Part shown: positions 12,506-61,263 of the stretch, piece after piece
Layout of the letters: each line of letters starts with the position of its first letter
How positions within the stretch are numbered: position 1 is the first letter of the stretch
Assembly: GCA_021432655.1 (NCBI GenBank)
Contig: MU271196.1
Span: 124,001-187,202 of the forward strand
Length of the DNA: 63,202 nt
DNA from: Atractiella rhizophila
Taxonomy: Eukaryota
Direction of reading: 5' to 3'
Made by a program: the position numbers and the translations under genes
The notes under the pieces: generated by a model
Databases searched by the model: none
The model's input: the letters and a program-made list of their open reading frames with translations, nothing else
What the model was told of the DNA's origin: nothing

Positions 12506-14846
12506 TCAAAGTATACCAGTGCCTCCACCCAACCCCTGAATCGTCTTCCTCAAAAGATCCCAATCGCTTTCTCGGGGGTTCGCCATCTCGCTCCCAATCT
12601 CATAAACGTAAAGTTTGCCATCACTGCTCCCAACCACCGTCCTCTTCCCTTCCTTATCCCACGCCAGCTTGTTCAGTCCCTTTGGCGCTGCAGGGTTCAC
12701 CGTCGTCGACACCACGGGCACCTATATCGATCCCGTCAGTCCGGAAGCAAGGTAGGAAGAAGAAAGGGGACGTACCTCTGTATCCACGTTCAAATTCCAA
12801 ACGTCGAATTTTCCGATACCGTCGACAGTCCCGAAGAGTGCGGGATGGTGAGGATGCCACTTAACATCAAATACGTAGTCGTCATTCTCCTCCATACTAG
12901 CCAGAGGGGCAATGGCCTGAATCGCTCCTCCTCCCGCCGCCCTCTTCTGCCCAGCACCAGCCTTCGCGCGCCAGAGCTTGACTGTCCAATCGACTCCACA
13001 AGTGAGGAAGAGGTCGCTAAAATCCACATTTCCATGAAGAGGATGGAAGTGCATTCCCATCACCGGCCCACCATGTCCTCTATACACCTCTCCACTGACG
13101 AGACCAGCCTTGGACCCAGCCCGATCGTACCTGTTGGCGGCATACACGTTCCCCTCTTCCGTACCGACGCAAAAGCTCGTCGTCTCACCCTCCGAAAAGG
13201 CCATAGCGGTAACAGCGACCTCGTCCGTCTTATTCGCGTTCGGGAGGACGAGTTGGAGGGTCTCTTGAGGCTGAGCGAGCATATCAAGGACCCAAGCACA
13301 CACCGTCCCGTCCGTGCTCGCACTAAGGAGGTTATGAGCATTCTGCGTACCCACGATAGACATAGAATAAATAGGATGAGTGTGTCCCGCAGACGCTGAG
13401 AGAGGAGTCTTGAGAGCAGGGTTGGGAGAACGGTTGCGGGTGTCCCAGAGGAGGATCTGGCCAGAGTAGGTACCGCCGATGATGTGATTGGGGTGGAAGG
13501 GGGTGAAGGAGACGGAGAGAACGTCGGACGGAGCGTGGAAGGTGTATTCGGGACGTGCAAGTAAGTGGAGGTTCCAGACGCACGCGATGCCATCTGGCTC
13601 GTTCAGTGCGAGCGGATTCTTGTTGTAGGACGCAACGCAAAGTTCCGGGAACTGAGTGAAGGAATCAGGTGCGGTTGTGGGATGGAGTGGAAGGTGGGGA
13701 CAGACCTTGGGTGACCAATCTACGTCCGTCACCGATCGATTCTTGTTCCACCGCTCGTCCCAAAAGGTGCAAGCAAGTCGCACGCGCTGTCGGTTCTCAT
13801 CGTCCCTACCCCACCCCATCAATCAGTCGGTCGTTGAAAGGTAAAGAAAGCGGAAGTAAGAGCGTACATGTCATCTCCTCCTCCACCTGAGATGGAATAA
13901 TCTCTCAAATAATCGTATCCCTCGCTCAGAGCCCTCATCGCGACCTTTGTGGCATCATCCAAAAAGTCCCTAAACTCCGGGTCCTCCAAAACAGCCTCCA
14001 ACCTCTCTCCTTGCAAACCCTTCACCCTCTCCTCCATCAACTCCTTCTCCAACTTCTCCCTCTCCTCCGCAATTTCCTTATCCAATCTCTCCTTCTCAGC
14101 TTCGAATTCAGCTTTGAACCGCGCACGGAGCTCAGCGTCGCTCTCCCTCCCAACTCCCCCAGCCGAATCTAAACCGTCCGTCCCCTCCTCCCCCTCCCCG
14201 ACCTCTCCCCCAACCCCTACGCCTACACCGACGGCGATTCCAGAGGAAGGACGCTCAGTGCCAGTACTCGACCCTGAACCCGAAAAAGTCGTCTGTATCC
14301 CCTTCTCATACACCAACTTCGGACGTGGCGCTATCTCGAACACCTCCAACGTCACATCGGCGAATTCAGGGACTACTTGACCGGCGAAAGAGCTCGTGTC
14401 GAAGTCAGTCCCGACAGCCGTGACACCTGTCGTGGAGGGTGCCCAGGTGGGGGCGTTGGCCTCTTTACCGCCGCGGGAGGAGGAGGAGCCGCCATCGTCG
14501 AATGCGGATAGGGGAGTCGAAGGCGGAATGGGCGATGGTGACGATGGTGATGGCGCAGAGAGGAGGCCATTCACGAGCTCTTCTAGTTCTCGACGGGACG
14601 TTGGCGCTTTTTCGTACGGCGTCTGCCCCAATAATCTCCATTAGTTCTCTCAATCGTGTAAACAGAAATGTTGGGAAGTGGGAGAGGCGGCAGAGTGAGA
14701 ATAGGGCAAACCTGTGCGCCTGAAGATACCCCTCCGCCGCCACTGGCTGCAGCCCGTCGCTCTGCTTCTCGACGTGCCCGCGCCTCTTTGAGCTCAGCGA
14801 GTTTGGCACGCTTTTCTCGGATTTCTGATTTGTGCCGTGATTCCAT
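12506..14846 (-). CDS. Cytoplasmic dynein intermediate chain (WD40)
   Basis: N-terminal helix MESRHKSEIREKRAKLAELKEARARR, light-chain site YEKGIQT, WD region RSVTDVDWSPKFPELCVASY, GGTYSGQILLWD, GHTHPIY, DWTVKLW, DVKWHPHHPALF. Confidence 0.92.
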
Positions 14847-17201: not shown

Positions 17202-18620
17202 ATGCGACGATTCTCCCATAGTTCCTCGTTGAACCCTTTGCTGTTAAAGCCGACGCTTCCTATTGTGCACCGGGCTATGATACCTCCTCGAGTGTTTCCG
17301 ACATCAGGTTTCCAAGTAATACCAGAGTCCACTCTGCTCGACGAAGAAACGCTTCCTTCTTATCATCCTGCCCAATACTACCCAGCACGGATTGGTCAAG
17401 TCTTAAATACACATTATCAGATTGTTTCAAAGGTCGGTTTTGGGACTACATCGACGGTGTGGTTATGCAGGGATTTGAGGTATGGAGCAGCGCAGTGGAA
17501 CTAGGTATTATTTGCTGACTTACAACAGGTCAGCGGTGGCGGAGTATAAGGTCGTCAAGATCCTCACCAAGTCTGCTTCTAGAAATGGGAATTTTGAACT
17601 CGACGCCTTTGAGCATCTAAAATCAAAGCCATGGAAACATGTTGGAAAGGAGTACGTGCATATAATCGACGAGCGATTTTCCTTGGTTTCAAATGAAGCC
17701 TCAGCGCATACGTGCTTGGTCTATGAACCGTTGGCTATCAGCTTACACGACCTTCGTAATCGCCTCCAGGGAAAATGGCCAGTGGAACTTCTTACGAAGC
17801 TGATAGTCTACCTCCTTTTAGGACTCGATTTTCTCCATTCCGAAGCTCAGCTTATTCATACAGGTATGCCTCGAGCTCTCCTCTTTATTATTAATTGCTG
17901 ACTGTGGTGTAGATCTGCAACCCAAGAACGTCCTCTTCACGATGAAGGATCTTTCCGTGTTGTTGAAGACTGAAGAACGTGAGATCCGATCCCCTATCCC
18001 TCGCAAGATTCTCTCCGATCGCGTCATTTATCCTTCTATAACCCCTCCATACACCATCAACTTCCCCATAATCTGCGACTTCGGCCAGACGCGATTTGGC
18101 GATCTCGCACCGTGGAAGGATGACATCATGCCTGATCTCTTTCGAGCACCGGAAGTTGTACTTGACATGCCTTGGAGCTATCCGGTTGACATTTGGAGCC
18201 TGGGAATGCTGGTTTGGATGACTGTTTACGACAAGCACTTGTTCAACGCCAAAGACAGTGAAGGGAATCTTTCAAATGCTCATCACCTTGCAGAGATGAT
18301 TGCACTAATGGGAATGCCGCCGAAAAAGTTTTTGAAAGGTGAGAGGGCCCAGAAATATTTTGACGAAGACGGTGAGCACAACCGTACCAAATTGTTCTTG
18401 TTCTCACTGTGTCCTTCAAGGTAATTGGAGGGGCCTTGCTCCCATACCGAAGAAGTCATTTGAGGATTTAGAGACCCGTTTTGAGGGCGACTGTAGGGAG
18501 TTGTTTCTCGCTTTCATTCGGAAGACGCTCAGGTGGGATCCGGCTGAGCGACCGACAGCAAGCGAATTATGGGGAGATCCGTGGCTTGCGACTGCATGGG
18601 GTGATGAAGTGCTGAAATGA
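17202..18620 (+). CDS. SRPK/Sky1-like (CMGC) protein kinase, copy A (3 introns)
   Basis: YYPARIGQVLNTHYQIVSKVGFGTTSTVWLCRDL, VVKIL, IHT|DLQPKNVL, ICDFG, FRAPEVVLDMPWSYPVDIWSLG, LRWDPAERPTASEL. Confidence 0.9.
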
Positions 18621-19453: not shown

Positions 19454-22050
19454 CGTTACTTGCAACCTACCAGCCCTAACTGTATCCTTCTGTCCCTTGC
19501 TGGGGAGGGACGATCACGTGATCTCCACCGACGAACACTCGCTCTGAGGCCTCTGAGGGACTGTCGGCATTACGAATACACTGCAGTATGCGGCTCTCCA
19601 GCGAGAGGGGGAGCTCCCAGACATTTTTCAGCCGGACGCTCGAATTTCACAATACTCTCCCTTGCAGCTAACTGCCAGTGACTGGTTGTGACCCAATGTC
19701 GAAGGTTTCCGCACCGTGATTCTGGACATGTTATCGACTATCACTTGTCGCATGGTTCACTTGTCAAAATATACCTCATTGGATGGTAACGAGAGTCAAA
19801 GCTATTTACTAGCAACCGAAAACAACAATGCGCTCATCCTGCACATCGCCATCACATTGGGGCATGTCCGATAAAAATATTTTACCCACCTGGTCTGAAC
19901 TTTGGACGCCAACGTCGTGGCGACGAGACCCATTCACCCCCATCTGTGGCCTGAATGTGTGGTGGGCCGGTTCCACCGATCCAGACGAACTGCCTCGTCA
20001 CAAGAGGGGTCGCTCTGAAAGCTCCAGCCATGCTTTTCTTCTTGATGATTGCTGCGCTTCCAGAACCCAGAGTTGGTGCCAGCGGAAGAAGCTTGCCTAA
20101 AATTTGTTGTAGCCACCTTACATAACTTACCGTTCTTCTTTGCATGGCTGGGACGAAAAGAGTCAAGCTTTGGAAGCTGAAAACTGGAAAATTCTGGAGA
20201 CTTTGTAGCCTTGAGGCTTCAGCAGCTCCAAACGCTGCAACCTGAAGGAATTGAATGTCGTATGCAGTCCAGCTTAGGAGACAGAACACATTACGCGCTC
20301 AGCTTGACATGGTGAGTTGATATGGACATCCTTGACGTAATGACTCTGATATACGGGCCAACTGTAGTTTGCAGTGGGTTGAGTAGGGTTTCGATTCCCA
20401 AACTTGTTCCCTTGCACTCTTCTCGCCTCAGGCTCTTGCTGTCACCATGCGACAATTCTCCCTCAGTTCCTCGTTGAACCCCTTTATTCTAAAGCCGACG
20501 CTTCCTATGGTGCACCGGGCTATGATACATCCTCGAGCGTTCCCGACGTCTGGTTTCCAATTAATACCAGAGTCCACTCTGCTTGACGAAGAAACGCTTC
20601 CTTCTTATCATCCTGCCCAATACTACCCAGCACGGATTGGCCAAGTCTTAAATACACATTATCAGATCGTTTCAAAGGTCGGTTTTGGAACTACATCGAC
20701 AGCGTGGTTATGCAGGGATTTGAGGTATGGAGCAGCGCAGAGAATTAGTTATCATACGCTGACTTAAAACAGGTCAAAGGCAGCGGAATATAAGGTTGTC
20801 AAGATCCTCACCCAGTCTGCTTCTAGAAATGGGAATTTTGAACTCAATGCCTTGGAGCATCTCAAATCAAAGCCATGGAAACATGTTGGAAAGGAATACG
20901 TACATATAATCCACGAGCGATTTTCCCTGGTTTCAAATGAAGCCTCAGCGCATACGTGCTTGGTCTATCAACCGTTGGCTATAAGCTTGCACGACCTTCG
21001 TAATCGCCTCCAGGGGAAATGGCCAGTGGAACTCCTTACGAAGATGATCGTCTACCTCCTTTTAGGACTCGATTTCCTCCATTCTGAAGCTCAACTTATT
21101 CATACAGGTTTACCTCGAGCTCTCTTTTTATTAATTGCTGATTGTGGCGTAGATCTGCAACCGAAGAACATACTCTTCACGATGAAGGATCTTTCGGTGT
21201 TGTCGAAGACTGAAGAACGAGAGATCCGATCCCCTATCCCTCGCAAGATTCTCTCAGATCGCATCATTTACCCTTCGATAACCCCTCCATACACCATCAA
21301 CTTCCCCATAATCTGCGACTTCGGCCAGACACGATTTGGCGATCTCGCACCGTGGAAAGATGACATCATGCCTGATCTCTTTAGAGCACCAGAAGTTGTA
21401 CTAGACATGCCTTGGAGCTATCCAGTTGACATCTGGAGCCTGGGCATGCTGGTTTGGATGACTGTTTACGACAAGCACTTGTTCAACGCCAAAGACAGTG
21501 AGGGGAATCTTTCTAATGCTCATCACCTTGCAGAGATGATTTCACTGTTGGGAATGCCGCCAAAAACGTTTTTGAAAGGTGAGAGGGCCCGGAAATATTT
21601 TGACGAAGACGGTGAGCACAGCCGTACCAAACTCTTCTTGTTCTCACTCGGTCCATCAAGGCAATTGGAACGGCCTAGCTCCCATACCGAAGAAGTCATT
21701 TGAGGATTTGGAGACCCGTTTTCAGGGCGACTGTAGGAAGTCGTTTCTCGCTTTCATTCGGAAGACGCTCAGGTGGGATCCGGCTGAGAGACCGAAAGCA
21801 AGCGAATTATGGGGAGATCCGTGGCTTGCAACTGCATGGGGTGACGAAGTGCTAAACTGAACCTGACTTCTTTGATTGTGAAGCAATCCGCTCCGCACGG
21901 GAGCTTTCCTGTGCTGAGAACATGACTAGGGTGGGAAAGGAGGTCTTCTTGTATCTTGCCTGTATCATGTTACAGGAATTGCAAGCAAATAATCGAAGAA
22001 TCCTGCACTCGAGTTGACTTGAAGTTTGTTGCCTCAGCGGCGCCTCAGCT
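19343..22050 (+). repeat. Copy 2 of the tandem segmental duplication
   Basis: Matches copy 1 but lacks the equivalent of ~15120-16450. Confidence 0.9.
20447..21860 (+). CDS. SRPK/Sky1-like protein kinase, copy B
   Basis: Same exon structure and kinase motifs as copy A, with scattered substitutions and no stop or frameshift seen. Confidence 0.88.
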
Positions 22051-22101: not shown

Positions 22102-24593
22102 CTACCTCCTCCCTCTCCCCCTCCGTTTGCCACCTCCTGACCGTCTCCTATCGCCCCCATCCCACTCCCCAAAATCATCCCTCATCGCCTCCTCCTGGCT
22201 CCTCAACGCCCCTCCACCTCCCCACCCTCTCCCACCACCGCGCTGCTCCTCCCTCCCCTCCCTTCCCCCACCTCCATATCCATTCCCGCCTCCACCCCCA
22301 CCACCGTAGTCCCGTCCAGACCCTGGCCCTGGTCCGCCGAATCCTGGGATGTCCATCTGAAACTGAGGTGGGGGGGCGAAGGAGGGTTGGGCGGAGGCGG
22401 GTTGGTGGTGCGAGTTTGAGTTTGAGTTTGAAAGTCCCATCTGGGCTTGGTACATTGCGAAAAGGTCGGGAACCGCCGGTTGGTGTTGGTGTTGTGGAGG
22501 TGGTGGGAGTACCGGGAGGGCAGGTGGTTGACCCATACCCATTCCGCTCATGCCCATGCCCATGCCTCCTCCGAGGGATGGAAGGGAGGCGAAGTTGGAG
22601 GGCTGGTTTTGTTGCTGTGCGTTCGAGTTGGAGAGACCAAGACCTGGGAGAGCGGGGTGGGATTCTTCTTCTCCTGTCCCATTAGTCAGCTTCACATTGG
22701 CTATCCTACAGATTGAAGAATGAAGGCGGAATAAACGCACCCTCCTCCCCCTCCTCTCCTCCAAGCTCTTTCGCCTTCTCCTTCCCAACATGGAACCTAT
22801 CCCTCCCCAACTTCCCCCCTGGCCTTCCCCTACTCCAAAATCGCGTGGTGTGGTCATTCGATCCCGAGCACAGGACGGTTCCGAGGTTGTTGAAAGCGAG
22901 GGACCAGACGTTAGAGTCGTGTGCAAACTCAAGGTTATCGACAGGGACGGTTGGGGTAGAGGAGTTCAGGTCCCAGTAGAGGATTGAGCCTTCTGAGCCG
23001 CCTGTGACGAGGTGGGAGTGGGTGTGTGGGTGCCACGCTAGGGCTGGACAGAACGGGAATGCGAGAATGCAATGCAAAGCAAGCAAGTCGTCAGATTTGG
23101 GTTGGCTAGGTTCGGTACGACAGGAATGGAGGGATGGAGGACGCACAACAGACTTCTTTTTTGTGTGCGCGCAGAGAATGTACCTCTTTGAACGTTCGTA
23201 TGTCATAGACTTTAACCAGTTGGTCTCTGGAGGCCATCCCAACCAGATGACCATCAGGACACCATTCGACCGCTTGCACAGTGCCTTTGTGCCCATACCT
23301 GCTTCACCATTCAGTATTCGCCCTAGTATTTAAGGGAGATGGAGAAAGAGAGCAGAGCAGAGTACGAACAAAGTGGTGAGGCAAGTAGCAGTCCTGGGAT
23401 CCCAGAACTTAACCTGATTATCTTTCCCACCACTAACGATCAACCCCTTGGACATATGCCACCTAACAGCCTTAACGTCCCAAAGATGACCCTCAAGCGT
23501 CCTCTCCTCCCTCCGCTCCTCAAAGTTCCATAGCTTAATCTTCGCGTCGTCTCCACAGGTGACGAAGCGCATATCGTTCGGAGAGAAGGAGACGTCGCGT
23601 ATGCAATCGTTGTGTCCTTGGAAGAGGGTCAAGTTGTTCATGTTGCCACTGAAGTATTTGATGATCCCACTCTGGTCGACGGAGACAAGCCATTGACCGG
23701 AATGCGACCAAGTGAACGAGCGCACTGCCGTGTCGTGAGCCTAATCCCTCCATTAAGATTGTACTCTTTAATGATTTTTTGGCGCAAGGATGAGAAACTT
23801 GCCTGAAGCAATGACTCAAAGTTGAACGTCAACCCATTCCACAACGTGAACTCACCACTCGTTAGTCCAGTGAGGATACGTCGGCCTTCTGGGGTCCAAC
23901 GGACGACGTTTACTGGACATCTAACCTTGTTCGTCGAGGTGTGGACGTAACGCGTGCAGATAGAGAGGGAACGGTTGGTATATGCTTCGGGAGGTAGCAT
24001 CTATCCCGTTCTCATTCAGTATGTTGCGACGAGATGGAAAAAGGATGATAGGACAGACCTCGATTGTGTAGTCTGCGGTAGGGCGAAGAGGGTAGTCCAT
24101 TGCTATGTGTGTGCGCTCTTGACGTAGCTGGAAGAATCAATGTTAACTCTGGGGTATTCAACTGAAGTCTCAAGCACTCTTATTCTCAAACAGAAAGATG
24201 AGCATTAGCATAGTAGAGATATACTAGCACATCAAGAGAGTATGAAAGAGCCATGTAAATGTCAAAGATCGCTCAGTAGCAACCATGGCTTCGACCAAAA
24301 TCAAACATTGTTGACATACAAAGAAGAATGGTTGCGTCAAGAGAAGAAAAACCACGTACTAGCTTCCACCTCGCCATCTCTCCAAAATAATCCACCGTTC
24401 TCCTAGGCCTATTTTTCTTATTCGGCAAGGGCCTTCCATCCTCCCCAAGCTCCAAAGGCTGCCCTGCCTGGACAGCTGCCAGCTGTTCTTCTTTCCAGGT
24501 TACTTTCGGTGGTTCAGGTAGGTCCGCAAGGTGCGAGGGCAGCCATTTTGGGGGAGGTTCTGCAACACGAGGCGGACGTAAGTCCTGTATCAT
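22102..24593 (-). CDS. PFS2: Polyadenylation factor subunit 2 (WDR33 orthologue)
   Basis: [88 protein letters not shown]; Gly/Pro-rich tail. Confidence 0.93.
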
Positions 24594-49073: not shown

Positions 49074-50422
49074 TCACAGGATACCGCCATAATCCAGTTT
49101 CTTAGCTACCCTCTTTCTCACATCCTCGTCATCCTCCCCCTTTCGTTTAATTCCTCGTGTACTTCCTCCATGTCCCCCACCCAGTCCTAGATCAGGCTGT
49201 TCCACAGGCGGCAGCGCTCGCGGTTGAAGCTTCTCTTTCGTCTTTGGAAGATTGTCCGGCGCGGTAGGTGGAGGATCCGAGGAAAAATAAGGATGTTGGA
49301 GCGCTTGAAGAGCCGTCAGACGACGACTAGGATTCAGAGTTAAAAGCTGGTCAAGGATGGATATACAGTCTCGAGTTGCAGCTCCGAATAGGGCAGAAAA
49401 TGGAGGCCGGGGGATAGGACTGAAGGAGACGAAGTCGTTCAGTTTGTCGTGATCCTGAATTCTGGTTTCAGGAATTCTCAAAAGAGAGAGATTGAGCGAA
49501 GTTGACATACAGGCCAGTCTTCCGCAGTTGGTGTTCCAAGGGCTTTGAAGATCAGATTGAGCTGTTCGAAGTCCGTTTCCCCTGCTAAAAAGGGGACACG
49601 CAACATGAGCTCTGCAAGGATGCAGCCTGCGCTCCAAGTGTCAACGGTTGACGAATAGTACCGTGAGCCGAAGAGGAGCTCTGGAGGCCGATACCATCTG
49701 TCGACATTCTTCAGAACTGAAGACGCGAAAAGAAAGATTGTACCGTGTTACTACTTGGCTTGTCATCCTCCCTCCTGGATCTGGAAATTCCCGCGCTAGA
49801 CCGAAATCTGCGATTTTTAGCACTCCTTTTTCTGAAATGAACAAGTTGTTCGGTTTGAGATCCTAAACGCCTTTCAATTTGGAAAAATCGCACATAGGAG
49901 AGAGCAAACCCGATGAAGCACCCAATTTCGGTGACAAAATTCAAGGCCACGCATTAACATCAACATCCAACTCTTGACATCTGCTGCAGAGAACACGAGG
50001 GTTCGATCACGGATTAATGCTTCCAAATCGGTTGACAAGAGCTCCAAGACGAGCGAAAGGTTGGTGGCGCCAGAATACACGTCGAGAAGCTCCACAGTCC
50101 GTTATTACCTGTCTATCTGTAAATCAACTAGAGGAATGTGGACGAACCTCGATGACATTTGGATGTTTTAGCTCCTGGAGGAACTTAACCTCCCGAATGG
50201 CTGACATGTCCAATCCATCTTTGAACTGTCCAAGCTTAATCTTTTTGATCGCCACGTCCCGTCCCGTGGATAGTTGCTTAGCTGTCGCGGTTTCTCAGAA
50301 AGAGTGTTTGGTAAGATGGGAAATGGACCTTGGTGGACTACAGCATAGGTACCTTCTCCTAGCTTCCGAATCTTCGTGTAGTTGTTAGAGATCCGTTCAT
50401 TCGCTGCTTCCGCTGCCTCCAT
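49074..50422 (-). CDS. KIN28: TFIIH kinase CDK7
   Basis: [65 protein letters not shown]. Confidence 0.93.
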
Positions 50423-51736
50423 GTCCACTTAGACGCCTCCTTTCAACTGGTCTCCAGTTACGAAGGGGACAGAACAAAGTGTAACCGTACTAGAGAAAAC
50501 TAACCGGATAGTGACCAACTGAGAAGCAGAACCTGTCTGAGATGACTGCCAGGGATGCATGATCCAGGATCTACACCAGCCTCATGTCGAAGAACATTAT
50601 TCTTTAGAGACCTACCAAACACAGAAGAAAACGGTGAAGAAGCCTAAAACGCGGAGAAGGCATGGAGCGGAAGGAACGTAATTACTGAGAGGATGACGAG
50701 GGGAAGCTAGTCGCTGCTGGTAACTGTTTTGCTTATGGGTGACGCGACTACCTTCCTGCCTTACGTGCCTTCGATATTTGCGAAAATGATTCAAGTTAAG
50801 TATAGAGACAATTATCTAAGCTCTTTCACACTAACGAAGCTTTTTGCCTTAAAGTGTTTTCATTCCGATATTTTGTGCGTAGTGCTCAATTTTGCTGCTA
50901 CATATCCATATGTCTGTTGGAGAATAGCGCTTCAGTATGCCACGCATTATCTAACATCGCCTAAGTCCAGAGAGGGCCCACTCCGAGTGACTACCCGCTC
51001 CCTCCCGTAGCCACAGAAGGATACATGTTTGAGTACAAATTCAGTGTACGGTGAGCCGGTTTCAGGAGGCCTCTTTCAGTCTGCCAACGGATCGATGGCA
51101 CCGTAGGCTGTCGTACGTTCTTGGATATGGTATTTCCACGCGACTCAAGCTGGTATGTTAGCTGACTAGTTCGTGCGCTGTGGGCAGAAGAGCTGTCCAA
51201 CTCACCGGTCTGGGCAAATTGTACTTCAACTAGACGCTTTAGCTTTCGTCAACCTCTCGCCTCGTTTGACAGGTTTTGGGGTTCAATTCATGGCGACGAC
51301 TGGGTGCTCCCCATCAGGTGCGTTCTGTCGGGTTGCTGCAGCAAGGTACTGGGAACATATCACCTAATTCTCAACATCTGATGTTCTAAAGTTACGTCTA
51401 CGGGAGTCCTTGTCCACGTTAACCGACTCATACCATGCTCTTTGGATCGTTTGGAGTTTAAGGACTTTCTTCCGGTCACACCTCCGAAACGGAGAAGACG
51501 CGGGGTGAAATGTTTACCGACTACGGTCCTAAGTCAAGGAGAGTGGGTGCGTGATTGCGTTTCTACCTGACAGTAATGGGTTGTAAAGTAGATGCAGCCG
51601 GAAAACGACGACCGATTAAGCATGCGTCCTCCTCCTCACACTTGACCTAAGTGAGGTCAAGAGATGGATATAAAAGACGGCGTATATGTTCTCTGCCCTG
51701 CACAAATCAGGAAGTATTGATAGCTTATCAGACAGG

Positions 51737-53580
51737 ATGAAGAGCGCCATTCTCGCCCTACTCGCCACTGCCCTCCATGCAGGGCACGCACTCGACAATC
51801 GTAAATATTCGATGGTTTTTGAAAGCACGGCGAACAATGGCGCGGATTGGTTGGCGAAGTAAGGCTTTCCCCATCCACTTCCAACCGCTGACGCTTTTCC
51901 AGCTGGAATTTTGAGACTGTAAGTGAATACAAACATATCTAAGCTTCATTAATGCGCGACGCTTTTCAGCAAGATTTTACAAATGGCATGGTACGTCTGA
52001 CGTCTTGGTCCGCACCTTAACCCGGCATTATTGACGATGGCGCTTACGTCGTACAGGTGAACTATGTCGACAAGGCAACTGCTCAATCGCAAGGACTTGC
52101 AGTCATCAATCCTCAGGTCAGTTCATCCTCAGTTCAGAGTGAGGCTCTTATTGAAAGAGAACCATGGCGTGCATGAAGAATCACCTGATTCTCACCCCGG
52201 ATTCTAGCAGCAATCTTGCCTATGGAACCAAGAGAAACTCTGTGAAGATCAGCACCAAAAGAACCGTGGGTCTCTTTTCATCTTGCCCCAAAACGAAGAG
52301 ATGGTTGACTCATTCACTGGACAGTTCCAAGTTGGATCTTTGATAGGTGACTTGTGCACCGTTGTTTTCGGCAATTGCTTACAAGGAAGCTAGTGATCAA
52401 CGCTTGGCATCTGCCTTATGGATGCGCTACTTGGTATAGCCTTTGTTTTCATGCCAGTTCCTTTATTGACACAAGGGTCAGGCCTGCATTCTGGACCGTG
52501 GGAACCGGCACATGGCCGCAAGATGGTACGAGCATTCCCTCCGCCTGTAAATGGTACTTATCAGAGGTGTAGGAGAGATTGATATTATTGAAGGTCAGCC
52601 GCATATTGGAGTGAAAGTTATGCGACTTAAAGATGGAATACGGAGCAGGAGCCAACAATGGACAACAAAATCAGATTGCTCTGCATACGAGCGCGGGATG
52701 CAGTCTGAAGTATGTCCTTTGAAATCCTGAAGCATCATTGACATTCTCTCTCGAGGACACCCATGAATGCCACTGGGACGGTAAGCACTCCACACAGCGC
52801 TTTGCAGTTATTGAAGTGTGGGTGTAGCCGAGAAACCTCAACTGTGAATCTCCTGGGGCTAACAATCAGAATTTAGGTTGTCAGGTTAGCGAATCTCCTT
52901 TCAAAGCCAATATTCTAACACCTCGCTTCAGGTCGGAGACACCAGTGCCAGTAACTACGGCAAACCAGCGTCGGACGTTTCAGGGGGCGTCTGGGTAAGT
53001 CCTCTTCGATTGTTTAGGAACAAGTCTGATCCACGTCTGAAGGCTGTGTTATTTGACACAACTGGCGTATACTACTGGTAAATGACTGTCTTGTTTACCA
53101 GAAATGAGTGAACTGATGTGATTCTGGTGCAGGCACTTTCCTGTATGCACGCATCTTCTCTCAAATTGTTCTCATCGTGAAGTCTAAATAGAGGGACCAA
53201 ATCCCCGCCGAGCTCGTTTCCAGCAATATCACCCCCAATCCAGCGAATCTAGGCACTCCCATAGCAAGATATGCGAACCCTTGCAATGGAAACGAAGCGA
53301 CGCGCTTCAAAAATCAAAAAATCGTGATCAATATCGAACTATGTGGTGATTGGGCGGGCAACACATTTCAACAAGATGGGTGTGGTGCGTCTTCATTGTA
53401 ATCTTCTCCTCATGACCCAAGTGGACCGAATGCGCAACAGGTAACGACTGTAAAGATTTCGTGAGGACGGGAAGCAACTTCAAGGTACATGCTCTCGATA
53501 TTGAAGTGACTAGAACTAACTTGAATTTGACTTTACAGAATGCCTACTGGGAGATTCAGTGGGTCAGGGTGTTTCAGTAG
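51737..53580 (+). CDS. Secreted GH16 glucanase, paralog 2
   Basis: MKSAILALLATALHAGHA-LDNR, PAFWTVGTGTWPQD-GEIDIIEG, INIELCGDWAG, NAYWEIQWVRVFQ; many micro-exons. Confidence 0.88.
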
Positions 53581-54280
53581 GAGAGGAACCACTCCATGGT
53601 AGCATAGCAAAGTTGGTAGAAATGAAATGACGAACTCAAGACTTGAGGCAGAAAACTGCATGTGTTTGCTGATCGTACCATTACTTGTACCGTCCCTGCT
53701 GACAATATCGCCCGTATCCTCCATTCCTGCCTCCACTCTAAGGTCCCTAGCCCGCTATTCGCCCTCTCTTCATGATTTGCTCAACACCTTCGAGAACCTC
53801 CCTCAGGAAGCAACCCCTTACTTTCCAGCTCCGGTTTCATACCTTCCTCTCGCTGTTACGTATGCATGGTTCCAATATCTATTCTAACGGCGTCGCCAGA
53901 TTCTGGAAAATACTGATTTTCGTTGAAACCGCTCGAAGCATACCGATACCTACCATCATCACAATACTGTGAAACTATGCGACGAACAGGGAGAGACGTG
54001 AAGGGAATGTCACGCCGGCAGGCCATTACTATAGGAGAGACGGTTCAATATAACTAGGCGAAGAGTGGAGGTTATGGTACGTCAGTTTTCGTTACTTCCT
54101 TCTCGAAGAATTGACTTGCAGCAGAATTGATCATCGTACTATCAGGGCTTTGTGAAGAGGGAATTCCTTGCTTCATCGTCACGCTACGTTAGCGTTTCGC
54201 CGCGGATGCACACAAGCATACTGGATGAAAAGTGTTCCAGTCGGAATTTCCTGTCCAATCTGACGCTCAGCGGTCACGGA

Positions 54281-54316
54281 AAAGCTCGAAGATCACTAAA
54301 AGCTCGAAGATCACTA
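54281..54316 (+). repeat. Perfect 18-nt tandem duplication (AAAGCTCGAAGATCACTA x2) in the GH16 paralog 3 upstream region
   Basis: Directly visible. Confidence 0.85.
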
Positions 54317-54429
54317 ACTCACCTCACCACGAGTATGATTTCCATTTCAACCTTCCCAGGGCTGATATATATACTAGGACGCGATGAAAGCTTTCATTCC
54401 AAGTATCAGTTAGAAGGACAGTACGAGAT

Positions 54430-56207
54430 ATGAAGACTGGCGTTGCTCTGTTCCTTTATTTTGCTTTTAAAACGTGTAATGCCTTGGACAATCGTCCTTA
54501 TACGATGGTCCAAGAATATACCACCTATAATGTAAGTCAATTAGTGGAAGTCAAAGCAAGGAACTGAGTATAGTGGATCATACAGGGGAAGAACTTTTTT
54601 GACGGCTGGGTATTCGAGTCTTACACAGGCGATGAGCCAACTCACGCAAGTACCCGCTTTTGAACTCGATTTAGATTTTCTAACGATACCACAGGGGTAA
54701 GATAAATCAGTTTCGTCAGGACGCACTAAAGGAGAAAACAGGCTTGTCAACTATATCGGCAATCGCACTCAAGCAGCAAATCTGGGCCTTGCAGTGATCA
54801 ATCCACAGAACCACGCCATCATCACGGTTGATTCAGATAGCAACCTCGGGTACAACGTGAAGAGGAATTCGATTCGTTTGATCAGCGAAAAGTCGTTTAA
54901 AGTGGGATCCCTGGTGGTCATGAACGCTTGGTACGTTGAACTTGCACACAAAAGAAATGGCACTAAGACATTGTTTTTAAAGGCATGTTCCCTTTGGTTG
55001 TGGTGGGTTGATTTATTTTATACTGAGCTCTGTATTAATATATCTATATTAGCTGTTTGGCCCTCATTTTGGTGAATCACCTTACTTAATGCGACAACTT
55101 TTCGAGCTAACGTTCCAATAGGATGAAAGGAGGCTCGAAACAATGGCCGACTGGCGGTGAGATCGATGTGTTCGAAGGGGTTCACAATCAGGCTGCAAAT
55201 CAGGCAACACTGCATACTTCTGCTGGTAGAACAATAGCTTCTTTGTAATTAGCGTACTGACAGGCAGTTTAGGATGCACTCTCAAAACACCAATGGCGGG
55301 AACCGGGACCGTGCTTCAGACCAATTGTGATGCGTGTATTTTTCTTTCTTTGATGTATAACCTCTAAGAACGGGAACAGGCGAAAGCAAATAGCAATTCA
55401 GGATGCGGAGTGAAAGATACTTCTTCGAGCTCCTATGGGCAGTCCGCCGCCACTGCCCAGGGCGGAATCTGGGCTGTCCTGTACGATTCTCAAGGGATTT
55501 GGTACTGGTAGGGCGTGACTTCTCACCTTGTGAATTACGCTGACCTTTATTACGCAGGCACTGGCCCAGGAATCAGATCCCTGCTGACCTCGTCAGCTCA
55601 AATGTGACGCCAAATCCAGCAAATTTTGGTACGCCAATCGCTTACTGGGACGCAGCGTGAGTCTCCATTGTGTGGCGCTACACCATATTCACCGATGAAC
55701 CGGCATAGGAACTGCAATATCAACACGTTCTTTGAGCCACAAAAGCTTCTGTTCGATATTACTCGTGCGTGGTTTCTCCAATACGACTACCCTGCCCTTA
55801 CCGCGTTATTAGTCTGTGGTGACTGGGCTGGAAACACATTTACAAGGTACGTTCCCTAATTTGAATGATTAAGTTGGTTGAAAAAAAAAATTGTTTCAGT
55901 GCTGGTTGTGGGAGCGGTAAGCATTTCTTCAGTTAATGAGGAGTGCGGGTCCTAAAAGCCAACCAGATTGCAAGGCTTTTGTACAGACAGGCAATAATTT
56001 CAAGGTCCGTGGCTTATTCTTCATGGAATCTATTTACTTACGTTGACTTCTGCTGAAGAACGCTTATTTCGAGGTATTCTTTCTCTCTATCAAGTTACAC
56101 TAGTCTGACGCAGATTTTGTTCCTGCTCAGGTTCAATGGGTCAGAGTAAGCCATCTCAAGTCGCAACACGTCTATCAGACTAAATGGTGATAAAGGTCTT
56201 CCAATGA
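54430..56207 (+). CDS. Secreted GH16 glucanase, paralog 3
   Basis: MKTGVALFLYFAFKTCNA-LDNR, RNSIRLISEKSF, WPTGGEIDVFEGVH, CGDWAG, VQWVR|VFQ. Confidence 0.88.
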
Positions 56208-57544
56208 GAGGCTCATTCACGGTTTCCAATATGTTCTCGCGCTCCAAATAAGCTATTGGAACACCGATTCTTCCAATCATGTGCGTCCATGGCAATATGG
56301 ACGGTATCAAGCAACAACTATGGTTGAGGTACTTGAGATGACCGTCGTGCTTATCTCTTATCAAACTAAACAGACACAAAACACTTGCTGTGCTGACAAA
56401 GGCAGCAGTTTTTTTTACTTTGAATCACGCTTCGGATCGAAAGACATAGCTTGAAAACGCAGCATGTTGTAACGACGCGCGATTTACATCAACAAGCCAA
56501 ATACAACAAGCAAGCAGGCTACTCGGAAGGATATCCTCAATCGGCCATGAATGATAGGAATGTGCTGATGGATCCATTAGCTCCTCTTGATGATGGTTTT
56601 TTAGATACACTCTCACAATGTCGCCAGCGAGCGACAGTCCAAAGAATTTGATCTATATCCCCCACCTCGATCCATAGGTGATTTCACGCGTCTTCTTGCC
56701 TTCAGGCTTAACCCTCTTCTTTCCCCTTCAATTCCTCTAGGAACCTAAGAGAGCAATACTAGACACGAAAAGAGCAGAATCGCGCACCGAGATTTCTTGA
56801 AACTGAAGAGAGCGCAAAAGTCGCCGAGTATATCCCCAACATACTAGCCGCTTTCCATCGCGCCTTTCTCCAGCGCGATTTCGTTGGGGATTTTGTGTAG
56901 AAGGAGGAGGGAGACGGAGCTCTAATTAGGTTATAGTCCGATCTTTCGTTGGAGAGAAGTCGAGCTTTCAACGACCACGAACGCAGAACTGTCGAAGCAG
57001 GTCCAAGGCATCTCAGTATCAAGGAAATCGGATACAGATATTTGAGGAAATATAACATTTAGCAAGTACTCCCTTGATCTGGAGGGCTGAAAGGCGAGAT
57101 CCTGCATAGTCTGCAAGTATTTGAGTGGTGAGTACTCGCACACTTGCGCACGAAACGACGTAGAAGTGGGTGGGATGCAACTTGCAACCTTCAAGGTGGC
57201 TCATCAAAAACTCCCTTGCTCCAGTGTCATCTGCTATCTGCTATCAGAGTGCACGTATGGTGGAGAGTTCCAAAAGGCAAGAGGCAAGATTCTAACATGG
57301 TTCCGCTGTGATTCTAAAAGCAATGAACTGATGAGCTGAATTTGACGAGGTTGCCTGCATAATCGCGCTCTTGACTGTTTGGCTTTCCAGAGGACAAGGG
57401 ACCAAAGCTTAGCGGCCATTAAGTAATCACAGAGCCAAGGTATTGACATTGATTTAGATTGAATTTCTTTTCTGCGTTCAATTTGCGCCGCGATACGCAC
57501 CACCGTCCTAGTCATCCCATAATCCAATCTTTCAATTTCCTCAC

Positions 57545-60500
57545 ATGTCCACAAATCCCATCAAGGTGTTCAAAGTACCTGAGAACATCAAGAAAGAGAA
57601 CCCACTTGGTCTACGAATCCTTTGCATCGACAATGGAGGCGTCCGCACTTTCTCAGCCCCATACATGCTTGAGCCTATCATGCTCAAGGCCGCAGAGCTT
57701 CTTAACGTACCAGAAGGCGAAGAGCTCAGACCTTGCGATGTTTTTGATCTCATTTGTGGGACCAATACAGGCGGATGGATTGCACTTATGCTCGGAAGGC
57801 TAGGAATGACCGTTCGGCAGTGCATTGCGGCGTATGAAGAGATCGCGCGGAACGTATTTCTCGAAGATGGTTTGAGCACCACTGGCGAGTATGTGTACTC
57901 GGCGGAGAAGCTTGAAGAGACTTTGATCGCCATCATTCAGCGACACATGCTGTCTTCTGAAGATTCTGCAAGGTCACTTCCTATGAAGGACCCTTCTCTG
58001 CAGGACAGATGCAGGACGCTCGTCCTCTCTACTTATGAGGCCAACATTGTCGTTTCTACTGGAATGCGCACCTATGACATTCGTGGTGCTGGATCCGCCT
58101 CTCGATCCGCATCCTCATATGTCATCTGGCAGGCTGCAAGGGCTACCTCCGCTGGGCCTCCCTTCTTTCCCCCTATCAACGAAGATTCCACCCGCTACGT
58201 CCAGTTGGGCTGCAACAACCCTGCTGCAGTGGCTCTTGACGAGACCAAGCGAATTTGGGGAACCTCCAGTGAGATTGCCTGTCTTGTGTCTCTCGGCCCA
58301 GGAGTTGCACGGGCTGTCGAGTTGGGTCGCACTCGGGATGATATTGAGGAAGCGTTGAAAGCGATAGTCGCAGATTGCTCAAACATCTCGAATGATGTGA
58401 AGGTGAAGATGCAGGACCGTGAGATGGGTCATTGCTATTATCGCTTCTCAGTTGATACATTCGGAGACTTCAGGTGGGAGGATTGGGAGTGGAAGAACAA
58501 CGTTGTAGGATGCACGAAAGCTTACATGGAAGCAATGAATCACGAAGTGTCCTCCGTGACGAGATCGCTCGTGCAAGGTATTCTCCATGTTGCTTGATTG
58601 TTGGCAGCATGCTGACTTGCCACGGTCAGGCTGTAAAAAACGCATCGCTGTGCCCAGGAAGCTTCCGTTGCCTCATCCAGGAGATTGTTATGGAAGAAAT
58701 GACGAAGTTCAGTTGGCAATCACTTGCATCCTCACCGACAAAAAACATCTTGCGATTATCGGTGGTGCTGGCAATGGGAAGTCCACTGTGGCCCGACAAA
58801 TCCTGCATGCGAAGGAAGTCAAAGACGCATTCAGGACCATCGTGGATGGTGAGGAGGAAGACTTTCGGTTCTGGGCACGATGCGACGTTTTCTCTACATT
58901 TTCATCACTCTCCACATATCTTTGCAGGCAGGTCTTCGGAATAGCCCCTCAAGCTGGAGAAACTGAACTCAGTGCTGTTGCACGATATTTCAAGAACCAC
59001 AAATGTCTCCTTGTCTTGGACAATTTTGAAACTCCCGCAGAATCTGACACAGAGAGCCTCCTGCCATTCTTTCAAGCTCTTCTCTCTGCCAACAATACCT
59101 TGGGGTCCGTTCTCATCGTGGCGCATCGGGGACATCAAATCTATCGAGTGAATGTCACCGATGTGAAATTTCAAGAGCTGAGAATCAGTGGCCTAAGTGA
59201 CGCCGCCTGGATGGACCTGTTCAAGCACCTGTACACAGGAAAAGAGAAGTGTACAGAGCACGTACTCAAGGCCATCGTCACTAAGCTGGATCATCACACC
59301 CTGTCCCTCAAACTCTTTGTTCTTCGTGCCAACGGATCAACGAAACGCATCTCTGCTTTGTTGCAGGAGTGGGAGGAGAAGAAGACCGAAGTGCTGTGGG
59401 GCGAAGATAGCGAAGAGACCCAAACTCTCGGGACCTCAATATCTTTTTCACTCAGTTCACATCTGCTGACAAGACATGAAGACTTAAGCATGTTTATTCT
59501 TGCCGTCCTGTCCTGGACCCCTGACGGGCTTCTTGACAATGATATTAGAGCTATTACAGATAGATCGTGTCTTCCTGATTTGAAGGAGTCAGACAAGATC
59601 ATCAGCTCGATTTTATCCGTCGGACTGGCTGAGAACACGGACGATGCCCTGACAAAGTCGACACGATTACGCATGCTCGCGCCAATTCGTGAACACGTTA
59701 ACTACTTAGTTTCGCGATCCGATCCTCGCTTTAAAACCACAACCGTCTCCCTTGAGCCTGTAACTGAGCATCTCATCCATAAAGCTTGGGGAAATGTTCG
59801 AAAATTTCAAGTTGAGGGTGAACGGATCGGGATGTTGTGTTTCCGCAACGATCATCCGAATCTCGAACATGTACTTCTGGCTGGTCTTGAACATCTGCAG
59901 GATCCGACACCGTTGATCCATTTTCTCATGGAAATCTGGCGCTTTCAGTATCTCCAGCATCTTCTCTCAATCAAACTACTGCAGCGTACTATCTCCATCA
60001 CAAATTGTAATTGGTCCTTAATGAGATCCACAGCGGACTTGACATTAGCGATGAGCTTTGCATTCCAACAGCAAGGGTCTCGACAACCGGCATTGAAACA
60101 CTTCAAGGAAGCGAAAGAGCTGTATCTGGTGGAGGAAGATCGGCAAGGGCAAGCACACTGCATTCGTGGCATCGGGGAGATTGAGCAGCATCGAGGGCAG
60201 ATGGATGAAGCATTGAGACATTTCGAGGAAGCAAAGGAGCTGTACCTGGCGGTTGAAAGTCGGCAGGGACAAGCCCACTGCATTCGCGGCATTGGAGAGA
60301 TTGAGCAGTATCGAGGGCGGATGGATGAAGCGTTGAGATGTTTTAAGGAAGCAAAGGAGCTGTACCTGGCGGTTGAAAGTGTACCTGGCGGTTGAAAGTC
60401 GGCAGGGACAAGCCCACTGCATTCGTGGCATTGGAGAGATTGAGCAGCATCGAGGGCGGATGGATGAAGCTTTGAGACGTTTCGAGGAAGCGAAGGAGCT

Positions 60501-61263
60501 GTATCTGGTAATGGAAGATCGGCAAGGGCAAGCCCACTGCATTTGTGGCATCGGAGAGATTGAGCAGCATCGAGGGCAGACGGATGAAGCGTTGAGACGT
60601 TTTGAGGAAGCAAAGGAGCTGTGCCTGGTAATGGAAGATCGGCAAGGGCAAGCCCACTGCATTCGTCGCATCGGAGAGATTGAGAAGCATCGAGGGCAGA
60701 TGGATGAAGCGTTGAGACATTTTGAGGAAGCAAAGGAGCTGTACTTGGTGGAGGAAGATTGGCAAGGGCAAGCCCACTGCATTCACCGCATTGGGGAGAT
60801 CGAGCAGCATCAAGGGCGGATGGAGAAAGCACTAACATGTTTCGAGGAGGCAAGACAGATGTATCTGATGGTGGAAGACATACAAGGTCAACTTAACTGT
60901 CTTTTCAACATAAGTGAGCTTTATGCTGGAGACCCCCAGAGTATGTTCAAAGCAATTGCAGTCGTTGAGGAAGCAGTGCAGTTGAGCAAAGCAGCTGGCA
61001 ACTACTACGAAGCTAGGAGTACAAGGTGGTTGGCCGAACTCCTCTTCCTGTCCTGCAAGTATCACCTTGCCGGGCAGAAAATCATTCTGGCCCGTCAACT
61101 CTTCACAGATTGTCTGGCCACTTCTGATGTCGAAGCTTGTGACCATCTGCTTCACAAGATTGGGGAGGCGGAACGATTAAGGACGACATGTGGTTGTACT
61201 GGCTGTGGTACTGTCCATTCCCTCACAGCCTCTTGTGAGCTGACCTCCCGCTGCAGGATGTAG
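57545..61263 (+). CDS. Fungal NLR: patatin-like domain - NB-ARC - TPR array (frameshifted at ~60380)
   Basis: Patatin fold (LRILCID, RPCDVFDLICG, IALMLGRLGM, IWQAARATSA, NNP, CLVSLG, YYRFSV). Intron 58578-58629 joins it in frame to an NB-ARC domain (CYGRNDEV, P-loop GGAGNGKS, Walker B LLVLDNFE), followed by 40-aa TPR repeats. Confidence 0.9.
60090..60900 (+). repeat. Array of ~7 highly conserved 120-nt TPR-coding repeats
   Basis: Unit ALRHFEEAKELYLxxEDRQGQAHCIRGIGEIEQHRGxMDE starts at about 60090, 60210, 60330, 60469, 60589, 60709 and 60829. Confidence 0.95.

Follow-up and report, generated by a model that had tools for sequence, protein, structure and literature searches.

The window analysed here (63,202 nucleotides of Atractiella rhizophila, assembly GCA_021432655.1, contig MU271196.1, positions 124,001 to 187,202 of the forward strand; all coordinates below count from its first letter) carries at the locus in question, on the plus strand, one gene of the fungal NOD-like receptor (NLR) type, in which a patatin domain is followed by a nucleotide-binding oligomerisation domain (NOD) and tetratricopeptide repeats (TPR). 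The gene is one member of an expanded family of paralogues specific to the lineage of an Atractiella-like basidiomycete (Pucciniomycotina), and its patatin domain deviates from the canonical sequence at all three active-site motifs. Exon 1 (57545..58577) encodes a complete patatin-fold domain (P0001; Pfam Patatin, PF01734, matching residues 26-219 with 45.3 bits at a threshold of 27.7): the ATG lies at 57545, the stretch 57545-58576 translates to 344 residues with no stop, and 58577 adds one extra base before the GT of intron 1 (58578..58629; 52 nt, GT..AG, phase 1), across which one contig of run X3 is joined exactly. Exon 2 (58630..60395, P0002) runs to a premature stop and encodes a P-loop NOD, preceded by a linker and followed by the first 2.7 units of the TPR-like array; its Walker A motif GGAGNGKST (58761..58787) and Walker B motif LLVLDN (59007..59024; LLILDN in the paralogues P0190 and P0192) were read from the translation. 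The repeat array (60090..60878), delimited by Tandem Repeats Finder and matching Pfam TPR_12, consists of approximately 6.4 units of 120 nt, i.e. TPR-like repeats of 40 residues, the last 3.8 of which are 88% alike in DNA. The remaining repeats and the C-terminal region (60400..61263, P0003; Pfam-supported) are open in the +1 frame for 293 codons. A second intron of 49 nt (61208..61256, GT..AG), marked by a single, weak X3 joint with only 26 letters on its shorter side, is possible; lying just before the annotated stop, it would give the protein other C-terminal residues.

The nucleotide-binding module matched Pfam NACHT with 29.5 bits (cut-off 26.7), NB-ARC with 19.1 bits (below the cut-off of 23.5) and nSTAND6 with 26.8 bits (below 27.7). 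Because the NB-ARC match stays under its cut-off, this type is not established, and the designation 'STAND P-loop NOD' is to be preferred; the preliminary description of this DNA, which had spoken of a conserved NB-ARC domain with Walker A and B, was right about the two Walker motifs and went too far in the domain type. Since the patatin, P-loop NOD and TPR_12 matches fall on consecutive pieces and the intron between patatin and NOD is spliced in one X3 contig, the three modules belong to one transcript.

In the patatin domain, the oxyanion loop reads DNGGVRT in place of the canonical DGGGxRG (residues 29-35, 57629..57649), the nucleophile elbow reads GTNTGG (residues 72-77, 57758..57775; Asn-74 is encoded by AAT at 57764-57766), and the segment RYVQLGCNNP (residues 217-226, 58193..58222) has Gln-220 and Leu-221 in the place of the catalytic Asp-Gly. 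HMMER alignments to solved chains of the CapV and patatin type put Asn-74 under the Ser of GT-S-xGG and Gln-220-Leu-221 under the Asp-Gly of YVDGG, so that all three replacements named in the preliminary description were borne out by translation and alignment. The positions concerned are nearly invariant in 113 canonical fungal homologues (conservation of 1.00 for Gly-30, 0.99 for Gly-35, 1.00 for Ser-74 and 0.99 for Asp-220). Contigs of two runs cover 57731-58030, including the Asn codon, and do not differ from the window over that range (no other letter occurs in X1 record 2, and the single one in X2 record 10 is at 58262); both runs may be the assembly's own data. At 58262, in the same exon, the window has A (Thr-240), and the contigs of all three runs of the organism have C (Pro, a non-synonymous difference), supported by the entire depth in X2 and X3 and by 1645 of 2195 in X1.

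All of the nearest proteins in the protein collection carry the label Atractiella rhizophila (annotated as 'FabD/lysophospholipase-like protein'; P0024, P0004 and P0026 are examples); full-length matches to the domain are 52-60% identical, and the partial models P0032, P0030 and P0033 reach 78-83% over the first 100-125 residues. The collection holds no near-identical protein (best full-length match 59-60%), and the gene may therefore be unannotated. The paralogues share with the window copy the DNGG loop, the loss of the catalytic Asp, the WIALMLGRLGMTV helix and the start position of the NOD: the loop is DN[GS]G in 13 Atractiella-labelled paralogues and ENGG in P0007, and the Asp is gone in 13 of them. 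They differ from the window copy in the elbow, where Ser is kept in 15 of the 15 paralogues with a visible elbow (GTSTGG exactly in 13, GASTGG in P0032, GTSTSG in P0033), and in position 34, which is mostly Cys instead of Arg. Several of them are longer by 65-100 residues at the N-terminus, and the window contains no exon that would encode such an extension (the best upstream match reached only E = 0.27). A further protein with the same Atractiella label, the stand-alone P0029 of 378 residues, contains all three canonical motifs (DGGGVRG, GTSTGG and YVDGG).

In a FastTree phylogeny of 174 rows, calculated with the motif columns removed, the Asp-less rows of the family formed a 14-row clade (support 97), which is nested in a 17-row group (support 99) together with the canonical P0029 and P0057. 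As the oxyanion change (G30N, G35T) and the Asp loss are common to the clade, they date from its ancestor and arose once, before the family expanded; to judge from the sequences, the Ser-to-Asn exchange was a later event confined to the window copy. The three losses do not, then, belong to one gene, as had been assumed: two are clade-wide and one is private. The search for homologues that combine GTNTG with loss of DGG accordingly yielded Atractiella paralogues without DGG and, where the elbow is visible, none with GTNTG; of the two features, GTSTG and DGG, whose general retention in close homologues was to have spoken for simple pseudogenisation, the first is retained and the second is not. 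Within the sub-clade nearest to the window copy, three of four members carry an elbow change of their own (S74N in the window copy, T73A in P0032, G76S in P0033). This drift suggests, at the level of sequence, that constraint on an old, vestigial active site has been relaxed there; the two sister models, P0032 and P0033, are partial and may themselves be decayed.

The fold of the altered domain was predicted with confidence by AlphaFold2 (predicted local distance difference test, pLDDT, 90.8; predicted template modelling score, pTM, 0.92), which answers the preliminary proposal of a structure prediction in favor of an intact patatin fold. Foldseek related the predicted model to CapV, iPLA2-beta and patatin with a probability of 1.00 and template modelling (TM) scores of 0.68-0.75. 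Catalytic residues that are missing from a domain predicted to keep its fold form a pattern unlike general decay, as far as sequence and model can tell.

Comparison of the clade consensus with the canonical homologues points in the same direction. Among 67 positions that are at least 80% conserved in the 113 canonical homologues, the consensus keeps 57; the ten departures are L28I, G30N, R34C, G35T, I194V, A203S, D220A, T252S and those at positions 276 and 311. At positions conserved to at least 0.93, the departures are G30N, R34C, G35T, D220A and A203S, of which we regard the first four as non-conservative and the last as mild. Per-site conservation in the clade and in the canonical homologues is correlated (Spearman coefficient 0.63 over 273 sites), and the Pfam Patatin score of the window copy (45.3 bits) lies inside the range of the clade members (43-59 bits; P0029: 105.6 bits). 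The patatin domain of the family is therefore probably, by sequence comparison and model, a long-lived, non-canonical and likely non-hydrolytic module. The non-enzymatic role put forward in the preliminary description gains from the absence of the Ser, the Asp and two oxyanion glycines in a domain with its fold kept, with the qualification that it applies to the gene family rather than to the single gene.

The reading preferred here, to which a probability of about one half is assigned, holds that the dyad Asp and two oxyanion glycines were lost in the ancestor, that the domain became a non-hydrolytic family module, and that S74N was added later in the window copy. Comparison of the members shows that the family ancestor gave up the Asp of the Ser-Asp dyad together with two oxyanion-loop glycines, that the fold and the remaining family-conserved positions were kept, and that most members lost the oxyanion-loop Arg as well. 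The N-terminal domain of the family would no longer act as a canonical phospholipase. Ligand sensing by the TPR and oligomerisation of the NOD could still gather the N-terminal domains, and the output would not be canonical Ser-Asp hydrolysis and would more likely be the binding of membranes or lipids, or homotypic assembly or signalling. In the window copy, the vestigial nucleophile Ser has in addition become Asn, and a 19-bp duplication truncates the TPR sensor of the gene as assembled.

Several points weigh against this reading. The paralogues share ancestry, and part of the conservation in the clade is thus inheritance; purifying selection on the patatin domain was judged by site-conservation proxies and not by the ratio of non-synonymous to synonymous substitution rates (dN/dS), and the clade set used for the conservation comparison included P0058, which the tree places elsewhere. 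Compared with other conserved positions, those of the motifs are enriched in changes at the level of a trend and no more (4 of 13 versus 6 of 54; Fisher p = 0.093), so that the earlier statement of losses concentrated in catalytic residues, as opposed to random decay, stands with regard to the kept fold and the other kept family-conserved positions and is less secure with regard to the concentration itself. Many paralogue models are short (391-672 residues) and diverge after Walker A, and the family may therefore contain many decayed copies. The window copy differs at 26 sites at which the seven full-length paralogues agree, compared with 4-17 for the others; as a test of rate, this leave-one-out count of unique changes was rejected, since the window copy is the outgroup of the seven and the comparison is unfair. 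If the frameshift described below is real, the window copy may have no function at all. Finally, the plant pPLAIII proteins, which bear a GxGxG esterase box and are without the canonical Ser, have been reported to retain lipase activity (PMC7031755); the loss of a motif alone is thus no proof of lost activity.

An alternative that we consider unlikely, though a serious one, is that the window copy is a dying gene in an NLR family subject to birth and death, in which Ser74Asn and the frameshift are both signs of decay and the Asn is functionally uninformative. The frameshift (+1) results from a 19-bp stretch of the TPR array that is perfectly duplicated in tandem (60361..60399; 2.1 copies, 100% matches in Tandem Repeats Finder), and it leads to a stop at 60393-60395; hence the exon described beforehand as otherwise intact does have its 344 open codons, and it is the gene as assembled that is out of frame. 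Besides this premature stop, such decay would account for the private S74N, for further private departures at canonically conserved positions (L39P, A204G, T252P), for the missing near-identical protein in the collection and for the truncated appearance of many paralogue models. On the other hand, no other stop interrupts the 932 codons upstream of the break or the 293 downstream of it, and as neither frame is otherwise disturbed there, the break must be either very recent or an assembly artefact. Among the contigs listed, none bridges 60361-60399 or shows an omission of the 19 bases, and nothing follows from this absence. The private substitutions of the window copy over residues 2-103 (5) do not exceed those of its three nearest paralogues (6, 3 and 5), its Pfam score lies within the clade range, and the model of its fold is a confident one. 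Transcription and splicing of the copy are probable, given the X3 contig spliced exactly at the 52-nt intron 1 and four contigs of the root RNA library X4 that lie on the gene with 95-99% likeness; the neutral or accelerated change without expression that is expected of a pseudogene was consequently not found. An X2 contig of 1307 nt differs from the NOD region at 15 positions, and 7 synonymous and 6 non-synonymous changes among the 13 listed (approximately a third of the neutral expectation, in a very small sample) suggest some constraint. Moreover, two of the three motif losses are older than the window copy and hence not part of its decay. The copy may be a truncated allele or a pseudogene of very recent origin, and the possible frameshift limits the importance of this single copy.

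A 19-nt intron that would restore the frame was considered and rejected: no GT..AG pair of such a length is present, and 19 nt is far below the introns of the gene (52 and 49 nt). Another perfect tandem duplication (18 bp, 2.1 copies) was found at 54280-54317 in DNA with no recognised gene; the 19-bp duplication therefore has a parallel in this assembly or genome.

Improbable, in our estimation, is a clade domain that remains a hydrolase, its Ser working with a different base or a changed oxyanion hole, as has been claimed for the plant GxGxG patatins; the window copy would then be a catalytic null allele of an active family. The Ser in 15 of 15 visible elbows, 13 of them with GTSTGG exactly, would be hard to explain for an elbow devoid of any role, and lipase activity has been reported for the pPLAIII proteins, which lack the canonical Ser (PMC7031755). 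Most clade members, however, have no acidic residue at or beside position 220 (Ala, Val, Leu, Thr or Ser, followed by Ile, Val, Met, Leu or Ser), and their oxyanion loop lacks Gly-30, Gly-35 and mostly Arg-34; the GxSxG turn is, in our reading, also a structural element, so that its retention need not mean catalysis. The plant proteins resemble the window copy as members of the patatin family without the canonical Ser that are nonetheless conserved and biologically active; they differ from it in that the Asp of DGG is kept, an NLR fusion is absent and the position of the Ser is occupied by Gly and not by Asn (PMC7031755).

Distinctly improbable are the roles of the preliminary description, an integrated decoy or a sensor whose signal passes through a catalytically competent patatin protein or that inhibits such a protein: a candidate partner exists in P0029, a canonical stand-alone patatin that has the same organism label and is closer to the clade than any other canonical protein, and CapV and CapE entries, solved according to their titles as dimers, tetramers and filaments, indicate that patatin folds can self-assemble, which by analogy might extend to mixed assemblies, but no genetic pairing is apparent. 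In the 63-kb window, tblastn with the three protein pieces found no second patatin gene or paralogue besides the gene itself, and the flanking open frames could be assigned to no family. A complex prediction for the window patatin domain with P0029 scored 0.06 against a mark of 0.34; made with no controls, it weighs neither way on binding.

With respect to architecture, the window gene corresponds to the patatin NLRs of fungal allorecognition, i.e. PLP-1 of Neurospora crassa, HET-Z1 of Podospora and those of Cryphonectria and Botrytis, which likewise join patatin, a nucleotide-binding domain and TPR. In PLP-1, cell death reportedly requires patatin activity and the P-loop (PMC12881547; bioRxiv 10.1101/2022.04.03.486892), and the protein self-associates (PMC12881547; bioRxiv 10.1101/2022.04.03.486892; PMC10197012). 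The comparison with PLP-1 made in the preliminary description thus agrees with the three modules found here and with the reported need of lipase activity for death; the NB-ARC assignment is the part that is not established. In contrast to PLP-1, the window gene lacks both the Ser-Asp dyad and a canonical oxyanion loop; the likeness is one of architecture. A further difference concerns the linked, polymorphic SNARE partner of Neurospora (sec-9), for which no counterpart was recognised in the flanks of the window gene: 15 flanking open frames of 85-136 residues gave no Pfam match and no sec-9-like SNARE, although intron-rich genes could escape this approach.

The bacterial immune effectors CapV and CapE of the cyclic oligonucleotide-based antiphage signalling system (CBASS) provided the best structural match (8zr9_A, TM 0.74) and the best sequence match to a solved chain (E = 2.4e-4), at only 14-18% identity to the window domain. 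CapV has the elbow Ser in the alignment, one entry being titled as an S58A mutant, where the window copy has Asn; CapV and CapE are activated by cyclic nucleotides and not by a fused NOD as in the window gene.

The loss of the nucleophile is not restricted to this locus. The elbow Ser is absent from 33 of 178 aligned homologues, the window copy included (26 Gly, 6 Asn and, in a degenerate row, 1 Pro); the five other homologues with Asn-74 all keep the Asp and stand singly on the tree, which requires at least 17 state changes at residue 74 and at least 10 at the Asp position. By the tree, the serine-less fungal domains arose separately. They are of the GTGTGG and GTNTGG types (e.g. P0020, labelled Puccinia sorghi, and P0051, labelled Pleurotus pulmonarius); some are Asp-less like the window copy, and most keep DGGGxRG, which the window copy does not. 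Among the doubly altered clades that persist are one of six long proteins that have GTGTG[GA] and are devoid of the Asp, and the pair containing P0020. As an observation in its own right, well-supported clades without Ser and Asp comprise P0119, P0097, P0189, P0058, P0105 and P0129, P0074 with P0020, and P0069 with P0021; their elbows are GTGTGG, GVGTGG or GSGxGG, and several are part of proteins of 1161-1770 residues.

It is a tentative and, in our view, rather doubtful extension of the ancestral-loss reading that the Atractiella clade represents the first described fungal NLR family with a selectively maintained pseudo-lipase N-terminus, in which the patatin fold is re-used as an assembly, membrane-binding or bait module that may nucleate or sequester a patatin of the P0029 type, the serine-less domains of other fungi (33 of 178) being parallel shifts. 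If so, the output of an NLR through its patatin domain need not be lipid hydrolysis, in contrast to PLP-1, the only fungal patatin NLR with bench work behind it, for whose cell death patatin activity is reported as necessary, and fungal immunity would offer a pseudoenzyme case comparable to the sensor/helper or decoy NLRs of plants. Natural variants suited to testing are at hand in the canonical P0029, the Ser-bearing clade members and the Asn copy of the window. A full-text literature search outside subscription journals returned nothing on catalytically degenerate patatin domains in fungal NLRs; the literature on patatin and pseudoenzymes contained, by titles and the beginnings of abstracts, nothing about a fungal NLR, and a survey of fungal NLR effector domains showed 0 occurrences of 'catalytic' or 'inactive'.

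Some further features of the family deserve mention. The paralogue models P0004, P0005, P0006 and P0024-P0027 end at 391-672 residues; some of the short models continue past the position of intron 1 of the window, and in others the sequences cease to agree with one another shortly after Walker A. By their sequences, the short models seem to reflect mis-modelled introns or decayed copies. In the partial P0007 (Atractiella rhizophila label), the Asp-less patatin domain is placed directly before TPR repeats with no recognisable NOD in between. Among metagenome contigs, a scan with the single protein gave 144 pattern matches with no relative among them, and a scan with an 8-row alignment gave 73 loci with no close relative (best-segment identity of 25-55% in 71); the two higher identities (76% in L043, 72% in L065) are weak, short matches.

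Five open frames of 97-315 residues lie opposite the gene on the minus strand, none with a Pfam match; the long ones are caused by the repeat array. Upstream of the gene, approximately 8 kb (49700-57500; proportion of guanine plus cytosine 0.45-0.49) contain no open frame of at least 150 residues, and the shorter frames tested there had no Pfam match. Elsewhere in the window, WD40-repeat and three protein-kinase-like open frames were found at 12725-14640 (-), 22105-23329 (-), 17822-18421 (+), 20768-21700 (+) and 49077-49640 (-); two of the three kinase-like frames align to one and the same segment of the kinase profile, and the WD40 and kinase-like frames may represent further repeat-receptor or kinase paralogues.

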